Shown in pieces: positions 5,900-47,226 of a stretch of DNA of 64,000 nucleotides. The position numbers and the translations under genes were made by a program. The stretch is from NCBI RefSeq assembly GCF_024700885.2, contig NZ_CP117016.1. One strand, written 5' to 3'. How positions within the stretch are numbered: position 1 is the first letter of the stretch; every line of letters starts with the position of its first letter. The notes beneath the pieces are model-generated. The model was not told where the DNA came from and did no database searches. It was given only the letters and a program-made list of their open reading frames with translations. The DNA is from Escherichia coli. Lineage in GTDB: Bacteria; Pseudomonadota; Gammaproteobacteria; Enterobacterales; Enterobacteriaceae.

Positions 5900-6646
5900 A
5901 TGATCGTTTTAGTAACTGGAGCAACGGCAGGTTTTGGTGAATGCATTACTCGTCGTTTTATTCAACAAGGGCATAAAGTTATCGCCACTGGCCGTCGCCA
6001 GGAGCGGTTGCAGGAGTTAAAAGACGAACTGGGAGATAATCTGTATATCGCCCAACTGGACGTTCGCAACCGCGCCGCTATTGAAGAGATGCTGGCATCG
6101 CTTCCTGCCGAGTGGTGCAATATTGATATCCTGGTAAATAATGCCGGTCTGGCGTTGGGCATGGAGCCTGCGCATAAAGCCAGCGTTGAAGACTGGGAAA
6201 CGATGATTGATACCAACAACAAAGGCCTGGTATATATGACGCGCGCCGTCTTACCGGGTATGGTTGAACGTAATCATGGTCATATTATTAACATTGGCTC
6301 AACGGCAGGCAGCTGGCCGTATGCCGGTGGTAACGTTTACGGTGCGACGAAAGCGTTTGTTCGTCAGTTTAGCCTGAATCTGCGTACGGACCTGCATGGT
6401 ACGGCGGTGCGCGTCACCGACATCGAACCGGGTCTGGTGGGTGGCACCGAGTTTTCCAATGTCCGCTTTAAAGGCGATGACGGTAAAGCGGAAAAAACCT
6501 ATCAAAATACCGTTGCATTGACGCCAGAAGATGTCAGCGAAGCCGTCTGGTGGGTGTCAACGCTGCCTGCTCACGTCAATATCAATACCCTGGAAATGAT
6601 GCCGGTTACCCAAAGCTATGCCGGACTGAATGTCCACCGTCAGTAA
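5900..6646 (+). CDS. ydfG: NADP-dependent 3-hydroxy acid dehydrogenase YdfG (SDR)
   Basis: TGATAGFG Rossmann motif and YxxxK are present. ATG at 5900 gives 248 aa. Confidence 0.92.
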   Translation: MIVLVTGATAGFGECITRRFIQQGHKVIATGRRQERLQELKDELGDNLYIAQLDVRNRAAIEEMLASLPAEWCNIDILVNNAGLALGMEPAHKASVEDWETMIDTNNKGLVYMTRAVLPGMVERNHGHIINIGSTAGSWPYAGGNVYGATKAFVRQFSLNLRTDLHGTAVRVTDIEPGLVGGTEFSNVRFKGDDGKAEKTYQNTVALTPEDVSEAVWWVSTLPAHVNINTLEMMPVTQSYAGLNVHRQ

Positions 6647-6653
6647 TTTTTAT

Positions 6654-6680
6654 ACCCGGCGTAACTGCCGGGTTATTGCT
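6654..6680 (+). terminator. Hairpin terminator after ydfG
   Basis: Stem acccggc/gccgggt followed by a T-rich tail. Confidence 0.5.
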
Positions 6681-6734
6681 TGTCACAAAAAAGTGGTAGA
6701 CTCATGCAGTTAACTCACTCACAAGCAAGAACGA

Positions 6735-13260: not shown

Positions 13261-13587
13261 CTACGTGCGCCCCCATCCCGCAACAATGATCAACATGCCG
13301 CAAAGCGCAATCAACGCCCCCGTCCAGTCATAAAGAGTCAGTTTCACGCCATCCACAACGCGCAGCCACATCAACGCCGTGCAGACATAAACGCCACCAT
13401 AAGCCGCGTAAACACGCCCACTCGCCGCAGGATGCAACGTTAACAACCAGACAAACAGCGCCAGTGAAATCCCCGCCGGAAGCAACAGCCAGATACTGGC
13501 GTTTCGTTTTAACCACAACCAGGGCAGAAAGCATCCAATAATTTCACACAGCGCAGTAGCAAAAAATAGTAACGTTGTTTTAATCAT
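13261..13587 (-). CDS. ynfA: UPF0060 membrane protein YnfA
   Basis: 108 aa from [16 protein letters not shown], with 4 TM segments. Confidence 0.88.
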
Positions 13588-13721
13588 CTTTGTCACTTAT
13601 TGACATCATGTATAGTTATAGGGCGACATAATATCATCAATATAAACACCCTCCTGGTACGTTTTGCGTTCGCTGTGGATGGTGTAGAATCACCTTTAAT
13701 CATTCATACAGGGAATGAATT

Positions 13722-31826: not shown

Positions 31827-31991
31827 ATGGCAAAGCCGATCATCACGCTCAATGGCCTAAAAATCGTCATTATGTTGGGAATGCTGGTCATTATTCTCTG
31901 CGGTATCCGTTTTGCCGCCGAGATCATCGTGCCGTTTATTCTCGCATTATTTATTGCTGTTATATATAACTTATTTCGCATAACACATTGA
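31827..31991 (+). pseudogene. tqsA: tqsA (AI-2 exporter) 5' fragment, truncated by island insertion
   Basis: [45 protein letters not shown] runs into island DNA (IYNLFRITH*). The continuation [11 protein letters not shown] resumes at 47227. Confidence 0.9.
31955..31963. repeat. att core copy (integrase-distal junction; I call it attL by window position)
   Basis: TGCTGTTAT, identical to 47218..47226. Confidence 0.85.
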
Positions 31992-32037
31992 TTTAATTAA
32001 ATAATTAACACCGCAAAAAGTGCCAAAAATCGCAAAA

Positions 32038-32060
32038 TGACTACACCAGTGACTACACCG
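32038..32060 (+). repeat. 23-bp arm repeat TGACTACACCAGTGACTACACCG (left arm)
   Basis: A perfect copy lies at 47068..47090 in the same orientation. It is internally a tandem GACTACACC x2. Similarity continues for about 10 more bp (TCG[G/T]TGCAC). Confidence 0.85.
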
Positions 32061-32077
32061 TTCGGTGCACTGTATGA

Positions 32078-32102
32078 AACAACGTGGAACAAATAGACAC
32101 AA
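32078..32102 (+). repeat. 10-bp-phased (A/C)ACAA array, left arm (3 units)
   Basis: AACAA at 32078 and 32088, CACAA at 32098. Confidence 0.7.
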
Positions 32103-32415
32103 GAAATATACAGGCGGATCATCTTTCCAGGGGGAAGCACACCAATTCATGAGGGGCGTTAATGTCGATATGGGGATCCCCACCTACCGGAATTTTTTTC
32201 CGGTTAAACGTTAATCAGGCTGGTGGGCTTTACCTGTTCGGTAGGTGTTATGATTATCGTAATACCTTTCCCCCAATGGGGTAAAAGCATCAACCGTAAC
32301 GAAAGTCGTTATGGTTGCCACTGATACCCCAAATTTGGGTATCACGAGTAAGCCCCAAAATCTGGGTGTTACTCTTACTACCCAAACTACGGGTAGTTTC
32401 CGTAGTTTCATGGTC

Positions 32416-32435
32416 GAGTTGCAGATCTGCAACTC
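32416..32435. repeat. Perfect 20-bp palindrome GAGTTGCAGATCTGCAACTC
   Basis: Read directly from the sequence. It lies in a non-coding 0.7-kb island end, next to three CCCAAA..GGGT dyads (about 32324-32396) and a tandem GTAGTTTC x2. Confidence 0.8.
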
Positions 32436-32689
32436 CCCCATTAACCACAGGCGAATTTCCGCCTTCGGTCATTCCTTAATCATCTGCGTAATCATAATGA
32501 TTATTCAGCAAGCGCAATTTTGCGCTTTGCTTAAAGTTCAGCGAGTTACCGCGCCGACTTCCTCAAATTGAGGTTTCCGAAAATATCAGCGGGTTAGCGA
32601 TTAAGCTGACCATTAATTAAACTGCGAAAATGTCGTAGTTGTGAGGGGTGTAGCCAACCCATTTTTGGGCCGTCGGGAATATCAACCAG

Positions 32690-32971
32690 TTACCGCCGCA
32701 ACCGCTCCGGCTTCTTCCAGTGGTACGTTATTTTCTCCTTCTCCCGATACATCTCCACGCGGCGACGGTAGGCCAGCAACTCAAGAACTCTGGTTCGTAT
32801 GTTGCGCATATCCACGCCATTAAGTTCTATACCATCACGGCGCATCACCTCAGCAACAACACGCGCATAGTTTTCGGCTGTCACGCTGTCCGGCTGCGTG
32901 GCCTGTTCGTCAGCCTGCTGGCTGATTCCGGCAACGCGGCGGATTAATCCCGTTATTTCGGCTTCTGTCAT
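32690..32971 (-). CDS. Hypothetical protein (93 aa) downstream of terL
   Basis: ATG with SD gaggt. It lies 13 nt after the TerL stop. No family was recognised. Confidence 0.6.
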   Translation of the reverse strand: MTEAEITGLIRRVAGISQQADEQATQPDSVTAENYARVVAEVMRRDGIELNGVDMRNIRTRVLELLAYRRRVEMYREKEKITYHWKKPERLRR

Positions 32972-34986: not shown

Positions 34987-35108
34987 GCTTATTTTTCGTC
35001 AGATTATTTTTCAAAAAATTCCCGTGCATAAAAATTTGAGGAGGCGTTCGGTGCCCGGCGGGGTCGGGTTTGTCCTGAAAACGCCCCCCACCCCGTCATA
35101 CAGCCTCA

Positions 35109-40583: not shown

Positions 40584-40632
40584 ATTTATTTTTACCCCCT
40601 CGTTTAAAAAGTTTTGAGTTGTGCCTCCCCTT

Positions 40633-40855
40633 GTCTACCTTATCTACCTTAGTGGCCCTCATACCAGTAATGGCGCGGCTTTCAGCGGGGTAGAGTGCTT
40701 TTATCCACTATCTACCCCGTGTCTACCTCCCTGTCTGATTCAGGTAAAATCAGGTAGAGAGGGTAGATAGTGGGTAGACAGTAAAAAAAGGTTATCTACC
40801 TAACTTAATGCACTGAATTAAATGTATTTTTCTTTACTCAGGTAGACAGGGTAGA
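40633..40855. repeat. Iteron cluster / candidate island replication origin
   Basis: 11 copies of the hexamer GGTAGA/TCTACC. TCTACC starts at 40634, 40644, 40711, 40722 and 40795. GGTAGA starts at 40689, 40753, 40762, 40773, 40841 and 40850. They flank an AT-rich stretch (40801-40840) directly downstream of the primase stop. Confidence 0.75.
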
Positions 40856-40871
40856 CAGCAATTACAAAAAA

Positions 40872-44379: not shown

Positions 44380-44475
44380 AGCTACCTCGATACTTTCGCT
44401 ATCGTTGGTGGTTAGAAGCCCGGTTAGTGTTAGCGCACTGCCGGGTTTCGTCGTTTCTGCACCTTGCGCCAACAA

Positions 44476-47042: not shown

Positions 47043-47067
47043 GTTTTACCCCCTCTTTACGAAAAAG

Positions 47068-47090
47068 TGACTACACCAGTGACTACACCG
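47068..47090 (+). repeat. 23-bp arm repeat TGACTACACCAGTGACTACACCG (right arm)
   Basis: Perfect copy of 32038..32060, in the same orientation. Confidence 0.85.
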
Positions 47091-47217: not shown

Positions 47218-47226
47218 TGCTGTTAT
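47218..47226. repeat. att core copy (integrase-proximal junction; I call it attR by window position)
   Basis: TGCTGTTAT, identical to 31955..31963. Confidence 0.85.

Follow-up and report, generated by a model that had tools for sequence, protein, structure and literature searches.

A conserved 123-bp cassette of dyads at the ends of phage-inducible chromosomal islands in Escherichia coli

The island end and its cassette

The window analysed here is a stretch of 64,000 nucleotides from Escherichia coli (contig NZ_CP117016.1). It carries a phage-inducible chromosomal island (PICI) of ~15.3 kb in tqsA, which belongs to the capsid-forming type (cf-PICI). The subject of this report is the left end of the island, a 0.7-kb stretch (31964-32689), and above all a 123-bp cassette of three dyads, a tandem repeat and a long palindrome within it. 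An identical island is annotated in strain FORC_069, where fragments of tqsA lie on either side of it and every gene is on the minus strand. The order of genes is integrase, alpA-type regulator, and Icd-like genes, then primase, SSB, and PerC, followed by major capsid, prohead protease, and portal, then head closure, head-tail connector, and HNH, and at the end TerS (P27 family), TerL, and a hypothetical protein of 93 residues, orf93. This gene set matches the descriptions of capsid-forming PICIs from the Penades laboratory. The island has a length of ~15 kb, int, an alpA-type regulator, and a primase with an adjacent iteron origin (ori); it encodes its own capsid, protease, portal, connector, HNH, TerS, and TerL, and its transcription is unidirectional. 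It is devoid of tail and lysis genes. The 0.7-kb stretch reaches from attL to the last gene and is therefore the non-coding end of a cf-PICI. The original prediction had seen an island end here beside a left att core; the position of the end stands, and the core has been corrected to the 9-mer TGCTGTTAT (Table 1).

The motifs that had been listed from the letters were all found at the coordinates claimed for them, and a repeat search recovers them too. According to this search, the distance between dyad centres is exactly 27 bp, and a 33-nt imperfect inverted repeat is centred on dyad 2 (32325-32357 and 32363-32395). The dyads share a 19-bp consensus, nTACCC-N7-GGGTAn. The pattern ACCC-N7-GGGT occurs four times in the window vs. 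0.62 expected, and a perfect 20-bp palindrome is expected ~0.06 times per 64 kb by an arithmetic estimate. Moreover, segment 32270-32450 folds better than its dinucleotide shuffles, with z = -9.2 on the plus strand and -8.7 on the minus strand. The claim that this DNA is highly organised is thus borne out, as its motifs and its fold go beyond chance. Tandem Repeats Finder does not call the 27-bp units a tandem repeat, and gives no support for a recent tandem triplication of 27 bp.

No credible open reading frame (ORF) was thought to lie in the region, and the tests agree. Pfam and PHROGs scans of the six ORFs present returned nothing, and homologous loci show no coding signature: four of the eight ORFs tested in them are frameshifted, and in none do changes clearly concentrate at the third position. 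By comparison, all 35 of 35 variants of the control gene orf93 keep the frame open, with 261, 293, and 651 substitutions at the three codon positions. A coding role of the region was therefore rejected by the profile scans together with this test of ORF integrity and codon position. With regard to known elements, Rfam 15 gave only chance-level matches at gathering and permissive thresholds in the window and in L073, a related island. Searches of 50,697 phage records with blastn and tblastn gave chance matches only, and the one phage match that was checked, in a non-replication gene of ST64B, holds a single dyad only. A literature search by sequence strings found no match to the cassette. As far as the searched databases and literature show, the cassette is undescribed; the class that is most likely for it, the stem-loop modules of operon ends, is an ordinary one.

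The 726 bp were compared by megablast with 5426 complete E. coli genomes, and in detail with 70-odd related loci. Parts of the stretch are present in 1317 of the genomes, the entire stretch in only 203. The comparison resolves five parts, namely 31955-32100, 32100-32317, 32318-32440, 32441-32651, and 32652-32689, of which the third is the cassette. The fourth part is missing from most relatives. It consists of two hairpins, the first of them GC-rich, and of the orf93 3' end with its stem-loop in two degenerate copies, which the repeat search reports as the 48-bp repeats D1 and D2. The first copy (32510-32551; the sequence at the orf93 3' end is GTTACCGCG) coincides with a terminator-like stem, and 32507-32552 aligns with the orf93-proximal sequence of a Shigella island (L004). 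Where both copies are absent, as in most relatives, the cassette abuts 32652. The stacked degenerate copies are proposed to have been left by repeated recombination between islands. The hairpin at 32446-32473 is homologous to a strong intrinsic terminator on the minus strand, which directly follows the cassette in the commoner arrangement; in the window its orientation is reversed, and it stands on the opposite flank of the cassette.

Among the remaining features, the 24-mer GTGACTACACCAGTGACTACACCG of 32037-32060 recurs at 47067-47090, adjoining int, and 32034-32092 aligns with the int-proximal end of a related locus (L001). Judged by their sequence and position, these repeats are probably integrase arm-type sites. 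In loci of the L073 type, a Chi octamer stands directly after hairpin A on the orf93 strand and abuts the cassette (GGCTGGTGGGTGAGTTGCAG); the Chi octamers of the terminal region may be due to chance, Chi being frequent in E. coli. Elsewhere in the window, 44380-44452 (+) has a weak Rfam match to the SymR antitoxin RNA (33.3 bits vs. a gathering score of 61; E = 0.0067), which sits in the Icd-like/early region near a ~440-bp indel separating the window from FORC_069.

Table 1. Features of the island end, listed by position in the window
Feature	Sequence	Position	Strand	Remark
Att core and arm-type repeats		31955-32100		attP arm
attL core	TGCTGTTAT	31955-31963		junction of tqsA 5' fragment and island; same 9-mer at attR, 47218-47226
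Two tandem copies	TGACTACACC	32037-32060	+	probable integrase arm-type sites of the attP arm
Conserved spacer		32100-32317		three stem-loops; shared with islands at other att sites; present in phoQ-side O157 island and Shigella island
Spacer stem-loop (hairpin)	accggaa/ttccggt	32186-32204		
Chi octamer	GCTGGTGG	32219-32226	+	within spacer
Spacer stem-loop	CCCCCAATGGGG	32270-32281		
Spacer stem-loop	AACCGTAACGA/TCGTTATGGTT	32292-32316		
123-bp cassette		32318-32440		three dyads, tandem repeat, 20-bp palindrome; borders sharp
Dyad 1	ataCCCCAAATTTGGGtat	32324-32342		extended 32322-32344
Dyad 2	CCCCAAAATCTGGGT	32353-32367		
Dyad 3	taCCCAAACTACGGGTa	32379-32395		extended 32377-32397
Small palindrome and tandem repeat	AAACTAC/GTAGTTT	32384-32409		
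Tandem repeat, two copies	GTAGTTTC	32393-32400 and 32402-32409		
Perfect 20-bp palindrome	GAGTTGCAGATCTGCAACTC	32416-32435		
GC-rich stem-loop with tail	AGGCGaatttcCGCCT, tail TCGGTCATTCC	32446-32473	+	
Stem-loop	CTGCGTAATCAT/ATGATTATTCAG	32484-32508		homologue in L003 and L004 is TGGTCAT/ATGACCA
GC stem	AAGCGCAA/TTGCGCTT	32510-32527		
GC stem with T-rich tail	AAGCGCAA/TTGCGCTT	32510-32551	+	terminator-like
Second degenerate copy of orf93 3' end plus stem-loop	AATATCAGCGGGTTAGCG, CCTCAAATTGAGG, imperfect AAACTGCG..CGTAGTT	32568-32651		
True orf93-proximal stem-loop part		32652-32689		
Hairpin A	GGCCCAaaaaTGGGTT	32656-32671	-	on orf93 sense strand, ~20 nt after stop codon
Terminator-like stem-loop	CGGTTGCGGCGGTAACTG, then GTTGATATTC	32687-32704	-	overlaps orf93 stop codon
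orf93		32690-32971	-	last gene of the island; 93 aa; phrog_1561, a PHROG of no assigned function

Distribution, modularity and the packaging question

The cassette is present in 705 of the 5426 complete genomes (13%), at 802 places, two of which are on plasmids. Each cassette locus that was examined is the end of a PICI, with the cassette in the same orientation between orf93 and the att/accessory side, and an orf93 homologue adjoins it in all of these loci except one or two. orf93 is the only gene consistently next to the cassette. It has no recognisable DNA-binding domain, and no Pfam, PDB, or NCBIfam relative of it was found; its family is narrow, and a single-sequence AlphaFold model is poor (pLDDT 61, three helices). 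The cassette is 92-100% identical between islands whose orf93 DNA is ~80% identical. Its family consists of two sequence types, of which the second is 76% identical to the first and occurs in satellites embedded in lambdoid prophages. One such PICI-type satellite (L081, in E. coli DETEC-S586) interrupts the gene for the major capsid protein of a lambdoid prophage and has the same orientation as the late operon; it carries an Abi gene, a TIR-domain gene, the diverged (76%) cassette, and the most diverged orf93 (61%). A dispersed repeat, either a miniature inverted-repeat transposable element or one of the repetitive extragenic palindromic (REP) type, was considered and rejected: the boundary relative to an O157 island (L003) has no terminal inverted repeat or target site duplication, and every examined locus is a PICI end.

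The cassette varies independently of the modules by which its islands are packaged, replicated, and integrated. Near-identical copies accompany an HK97-type TerS/TerL/HNH module, a module of Nu1-like TerS with capsid and decoration genes, and one of DUF1441 with a protease-capsid fusion. The origin iterons of cassette-bearing islands are GGTAGAYA, CTGTTCACC, or AAAGTGAGG/AAAGTGGGG, which represent at least three replication modules, and the islands are integrated at tqsA, tRNA-Ile, fis, hpt, clpS, and inside a prophage capsid gene. A role as an integrase arm site is ruled out, because unrelated integrases and att sites accompany the cassette. Conversely, the O157 island and the Shigella island L004 have orf93 and are without the cassette, and the TerS, TerL, and HNH of the latter are 99-100% identical to those of the window. 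Four islands (L010, L020, L032, and L049) carry the cassette in duplicate, and one (L036) retains it after the loss of orf93. Alleles of orf93 that are 70-100% identical share the cassette, whereas alleles of 87-91% identity are found without it. The cassette is thus a modular component that is dispensable in otherwise intact islands.

These observations bear on the proposal, made in the original prediction, that evenly spaced dyads beside a long palindrome resemble a packaging region of the cosB/cosN kind. In such a model the dyads would be TerS sites and the palindrome the cleavage site. Several spaced sites next to a symmetric one do superficially look like lambda cosB/cosN, and the region follows terL in an island for which cohesive ends have been described in the literature; cassette and cos have in common that they are non-coding, repeat-rich segments near the terminase genes of a cos-packaged element. 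However, a cos site must travel with its terminase and the cassette does not, so the proposal is not supported. The same cassette goes with three unrelated packaging modules and with no particular terminase type, L004 does without it despite its nearly identical terminase, and four islands have two copies. In addition, lambda cosN (GGGCGGCGACCT) was not found within 2 mismatches in 31964-32689, and the cassette is ~2.2 kb past the 3' end of terS, after terL and orf93, instead of upstream of terS or rpp. In HK97 the cut is made just upstream of terS. The TerS site of HK97 is 15-29 bp from the cut, and in Rpp-type PICIs cos is just upstream of rpp. It is very unlikely that the cassette is a DNA-packaging site.

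The cos of the island is more likely in the gap between HNH and terS. This gap (34987-35108, minus strand) separates terS from a small ORF that follows HNH; it contains the G-rich motif GACGGGGTGGGGGGCGTTTTCAGGAC and then A/T tracts, and the motif GGGGTGGGGGnnGTTTTCAGGAC is conserved in it across E. coli and Klebsiella cf-PICIs. A linear record of a Klebsiella cf-PICI obtained from a lysate (LR881103, 16.5 kb) starts 22 nt before terS and ends right after GGGGTGGGGGnnGTTTTCAGGAC, which also speaks against packaging from the cassette; the paper on this record does not say that the termini were mapped, so the record supports a cos in the gap and does not prove it. In practice, the packaging signal of cf-PICIs would have to be sought in the HNH-terS gap and not at the island end.

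The mosaic structure of the region may also be taken to mean that the cassette has no selected function. It would then belong to a zone of recombination scars at an accessory hotspot, kept alike by recombination or gene conversion between co-resident PICIs, and hairpin-templated repair would maintain its palindromes. The mosaic breakpoints are sharp, the orf93 3' end is present in three degenerate copies, and some cassettes are partial or duplicated with varied junctions; the dispensability of the cassette and the narrowness of a family of only two sequence types agree with this explanation as well. Against it stand the occurrence of the cassette in 13% of complete genomes at a constant position and orientation in the examined loci, its conservation above that of the adjacent coding DNA, its persistence in L036 without orf93, and a stem-loop after orf93 that is kept through many stem sequences. 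On balance, this explanation is unlikely.

Base pairing, transcription signals and protein binding

At the position of hairpin A, a stem-loop is kept in all islands with differing stems, for example CCCA/TGGG, GTGCA/TGCAC, ACGCA/TGCGT, GCGCA/TGCGC, GCTCA/TGAGC, and TTCGCC/GGCGAA. Double changes occur in 4 of its 6 pairs, G-U pairs occur in 5 of 13 sequences and solely on the orf93 sense strand, and the covariation of 0.359 (vs. 0.217) is reached by 1 of 500 shuffles. The hairpin at 32484-32508 has two double changes from A-T to G-C, in L003 and L004. Inside the cassette, 3 of 35 pairs have double changes (C-G/U-A, A-U/C-G, and G-C/A-U), and 3 of 500 shuffles attain the covariation of 0.076 (vs. 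0.056). The diverged type has a broken helix 2, and the inner G-C pair of the 20-bp palindrome becomes A-T through an A.C intermediate. The evidence for pairing is weaker here because the sequence hardly varies. Compensatory change is strong in the stem-loops next to orf93, with clear support for hairpin A, and modest within the cassette.

In the commoner arrangement, represented by L073 and L020, the orf93 strand reads orf93, hairpin A, cassette, two small hairpins, and an 11-bp stem with 8 GC pairs and a U-rich tail, so that the cassette falls within a 3' untranslated region (UTR) of ~200 nt. Accessory genes, where present, converge on the cassette; in L081 this is an Abi gene, and in L073 a small ORF for a hydrophobic product. 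The latter is an unannotated ORF of 47 codons (13575-13718, plus strand) between tRNA-Ile and the cassette, which encodes the hydrophobic peptide MDTLRKGSDLLSARVIAVTGLIAALGNLGLCPIAVVLVCIALVIMLK, has a GC hairpin terminator of its own, and looks like a type I toxin-like accessory gene. The window has terminator-like modules facing both ways, at 32704-32687 (-) and, by eye, at 32510-32535 (+). Intrinsic terminators are found in the flanks of the cassette, namely at 32704-32687 on the minus strand and in the 11-bp stem that follows it in L073 and L020. No promoter-like site adjoins the cassette in the window or in L073.

A strongly conserved sequence beside stable hairpins could also belong to a small RNA gene or to a small RNA derived from a 3' UTR, whose conserved single strands (e.g., CCCCAAAAUC and UACCCAAACUAC) would pair with targets of the island, the helper, or the host. 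The terminator after the cassette on the minus strand of L073-type loci, the weaker one on the plus strand of the window (32446-32473), and the persistence of invariant stretches where the pairing partner is lost are in keeping with this. On the other hand, the lack of an adjoining promoter-like site and of any Rfam match argues against it, as does the terminator, which changes strand from one arrangement to the other; neither a target nor a record in the literature was found. A small RNA is hence quite unlikely.

The regularity of the dyads suggests a different possibility, an array of sites at the DNA level, similar to iterons or operators, in which the three 19-bp dyads and the palindrome bind a dimeric protein. 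The partner could be a protein of the island (e.g., orf93), the host, or a helper phage, and the array could serve as a decoy, a roadblock, or an auxiliary site like the lambda ori. A single motif at an exact spacing of 27 bp fits such an array, as do the conserved arms around the variable A/T-rich centre of dyad 1 and a degree of conservation above that of the neighbouring gene. The order of dyad iterons, short spacer, and palindrome is that of the lambda ori, and dyad 1 and lambda iteron 3 have 15 of 19 positions in common. Nearly identical dyads occur in unrelated environmental phages: tandem TACCCAAAATCTGGGTA lies inside a small HTH_36 initiator-like gene, and in another phage ATACCCCAAATTGGGGTAT lies across a TTGACA/TATAAT promoter. 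Such a dyad is therefore a real protein site elsewhere. In addition, iteron-like modules occupy the same position in other islands, with GTCAC x4 in L004 and GCGGGTTAT x3, an AT-rich segment, and ATAACCCGC x3 in L020 and L082.

Several results go against the array. No partner was found, orf93 lacks a recognisable DNA-binding domain, and the cassette is not tied to the orf93 allele. IMG/VR and the phage database yielded no phage or prophage of E. coli that carries tandem iterons of this type. An AT-rich unwinding element and a cognate initiator gene are missing, the motifs are found nowhere else in the island, and the presence of the cassette does not follow the type of replication module. In the diverged variant, one arm is gone from each of dyads 2 and 3, and the symmetric double changes are what base pairing predicts. 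Protein binding at the DNA level is the main rival of the reading preferred below, and no more than tentative as an explanation of the cassette.

The comparison with the lambda ori takes in its layout beyond the annotated iterons. Both have dyads with C3/G3 arms around an A/T tract and then a palindrome, in the same order; of the three dyads of the cassette, two are lost in the diverged variant. In contrast to the lambda ori, the spacing in the cassette is 27 bp instead of 20-24 bp, the sites number three instead of four, the outer base of the arms is swapped (A-CCC..GGG-T vs. T-CCC..GGG-A), and there is neither an AT-rich unwinding region nor an initiator gene around or beside it. The 20-bp spacer has ~43% G+C, no O-like or HTH_36 gene adjoins, and the ORFs across the cassette belong to no family. 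Moreover, the island has its own ori at 40584-40871 (-), downstream of the primase gene, with more than 12 iterons of the form (T/C)GTCTACC / GGTAGA(C/T)A. These lie in two sets flanking an AT-rich stretch, the layout described for Gram-negative PICIs. None of them is in the cassette. Mimicry of a helper ori was rejected, since pattern scans of IMG/VR for tightly spaced iterons of this kind led to environmental, non-enterobacterial phages only.

Satellite phage P4 has a cis replication region (crr) of two ~120-bp direct repeats that carry the iterons of its ori. The cassette is similar in being a ~120-bp unit with three internal repeats, present as two direct copies in some islands and far from the ori. 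The crr carries the iterons of its ori, however, whereas the cassette is the same in islands with GGTAGAYA, CTGTTCACC, or AAAGTGAGG origins. Since it shares no ori iteron and is unchanged across Rep specificities, it is not a site of the P4 crr kind; this role, and that of a second ori for the Rep of the island itself, were rejected on the ground that cassette-bearing islands have three or four unrelated iteron sets. A second type of PICI primase, found in L073, L017, L028, and many other loci, has the ori iterons CTGTTCACC downstream of its gene. We take CTGTTCACC to be the type I iteron of P4 (TGTTCACC), and if this holds, it suggests that these origins share their DNA-binding specificity with the P4 alpha protein.

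A narrower version of protein binding would make the cassette an orphan array, similar to the lambda ori, carried by E. coli PICIs whatever their packaging and replication type, and bound by a trans-acting protein, which could be an initiator or regulator of the helper or orf93. The array would be either a decoy titrating a helper factor or a second origin for the replication machinery of the helper, and the GTCAC x4 and GCGGGTTAT/ATAACCCGC modules would be alternative specificities in the same strategy. This version is improbable.

Some related modules deserve description in their own right. The terminal non-coding region of L020 (1150-1377), L082 (7001-7298), and L080 (~30-110) has an ori-like module with GCGGGTTAT x3, ~60 bp of AT-rich DNA, and ATAACCCGC x3, which is present in 138 E. 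coli genomes. It has no adjacent rep gene and no phage match, and among phage origins nothing corresponds to the iteron cassette of L020. In L020, two direct copies of the 123-bp cassette flank this module. In the Shigella flexneri cf-PICI L004 (~6480-6700), a different module takes the place of the cassette, with the palindromes ATGACGTnnnnACGTCAT and AACGGTTAAACCGTT and four GTCAC at a spacing of 10-12 bp. In the environmental contigs L138 (5112-5180) and L134 (14285-14370), the tandem TACCCAAAATCTGGGTA lies in the 3' part of a small HTH_36-domain gene and encodes repeated YPKSG or NPTQFLG peptides, an iterons-in-initiator arrangement as in lambda O/ori. As for possible helpers, a lambdoid prophage (Q, nin region, cII, repressor, kil, recE, gam, bet, exo, and intD) occupies ~1-21000 of the window, upstream of the island and beside ynfG. 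It is a possible helper of the PICI, with replication genes of a type other than lambda O.

A possible boundary element of the island operon

The preferred, tentative reading is that the cassette is a transcribed multi-stem-loop element at an operon boundary or in a 3' UTR, with a probability of roughly 0.35. We infer both the transcription of the region and the service of its hairpins as a boundary or stability element from the arrangement described above. The cassette and its neighbours would act at the RNA level as the boundary of the single long operon of the island. The message of orf93 would carry the region as its 3' untranslated tail, and because the cassette is quasi-palindromic, it would fold equally on transcripts arriving from the other side, from the tqsA promoter or from accessory genes. 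Stable hairpins could pause or terminate RNA polymerase, block 3' exonucleases, or provide processing sites for RNase III/E. As an outcome, the packaging operon would be insulated from convergent transcription, and the host/int side from read-through.

This reading draws on the position of the cassette between orf93 and the att/accessory side, with a strong terminator following it in the commoner arrangement. Both strands fold far better than shuffles, and the stems keep compensatory changes. Dispensability and modularity are expected of an accessory boundary element, a role in packaging is very unlikely, and roles as an ori or crr, in coding, and as a known RNA family have been rejected. The region is also similar to the clusters of stem-loops at operon ends, such as 3' stabilisers of the REP or bacterial interspersed mosaic element (BIME) kind and RNase III sites like lambda sib. 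It is located at the 3' end of a long operon between convergent units, and has a series of stable stem-loops with compensatory changes and canonical terminators next to it. Lambda sib is next to att, as the cassette region is. Dissimilar are the absence of a U-tract from the cassette and the conservation of its primary sequence far beyond the need of pairing. REP, BIME, and enterobacterial repetitive intergenic consensus (ERIC) elements differ in sequence and are dispersed in the chromosome, whereas the cassette is at PICI ends in the loci examined; and in contrast to lambda sib, integration does not separate the cassette from the operon before it.

A number of observations weigh against the boundary element. 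Its transcription is assumed. The primary sequence is conserved beyond structural need, with positions 36-87 almost invariant where orf93 DNA is ~80% identical, and three dyads of one motif at an exact spacing of 27 bp rather suggest an array of protein-binding sites; L004, L020, and L082, which have iteron-like modules at this position, point the same way. The 76%-identical variant retains the left arms of dyads 2 and 3 and has lost the right arms, so pairing of these dyads is not the conserved feature. Within the cassette, the evidence on the strand from G-U vs. A-C pairs is contradictory. In 45 of 50 variants the sense strand has the better fold, and a choice of strand by folding energy was nevertheless rejected: the advantage of the minus strand is an effect of base composition, because z-scores are equal on both strands. 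The cassette itself has no U-tract and is thus no intrinsic terminator, and since the GC hairpin of the window is inverted and sits on the far side of the cassette, the layout of a 3' UTR before a terminator fails here. Confidence in the boundary element is limited because expression is assumed and because an RNA role leaves the conservation and the regular spacing of the dyads unexplained. The original prediction had named a protein-bound partition or regulatory site and a structured RNA as further possibilities; of the readings considered here, a structured RNA and a regulatory site bound by protein rank highest. Its view that the function is not deducible from sequence still largely holds.

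If the cassette is a boundary element, the finding is a modest one, a conserved cis module without earlier description, located where the hotspot for accessory or defence genes of E. coli PICIs has its inner edge. It would be useful for delimiting islands, and for PICI delivery vectors without read-through. If, on the other hand, the cassette is a protein-binding array, it would reveal a new layer of interaction between satellites and helpers, common to PICIs with different piracy strategies, and in its decoy variant a new kind of satellite interference or sensing.

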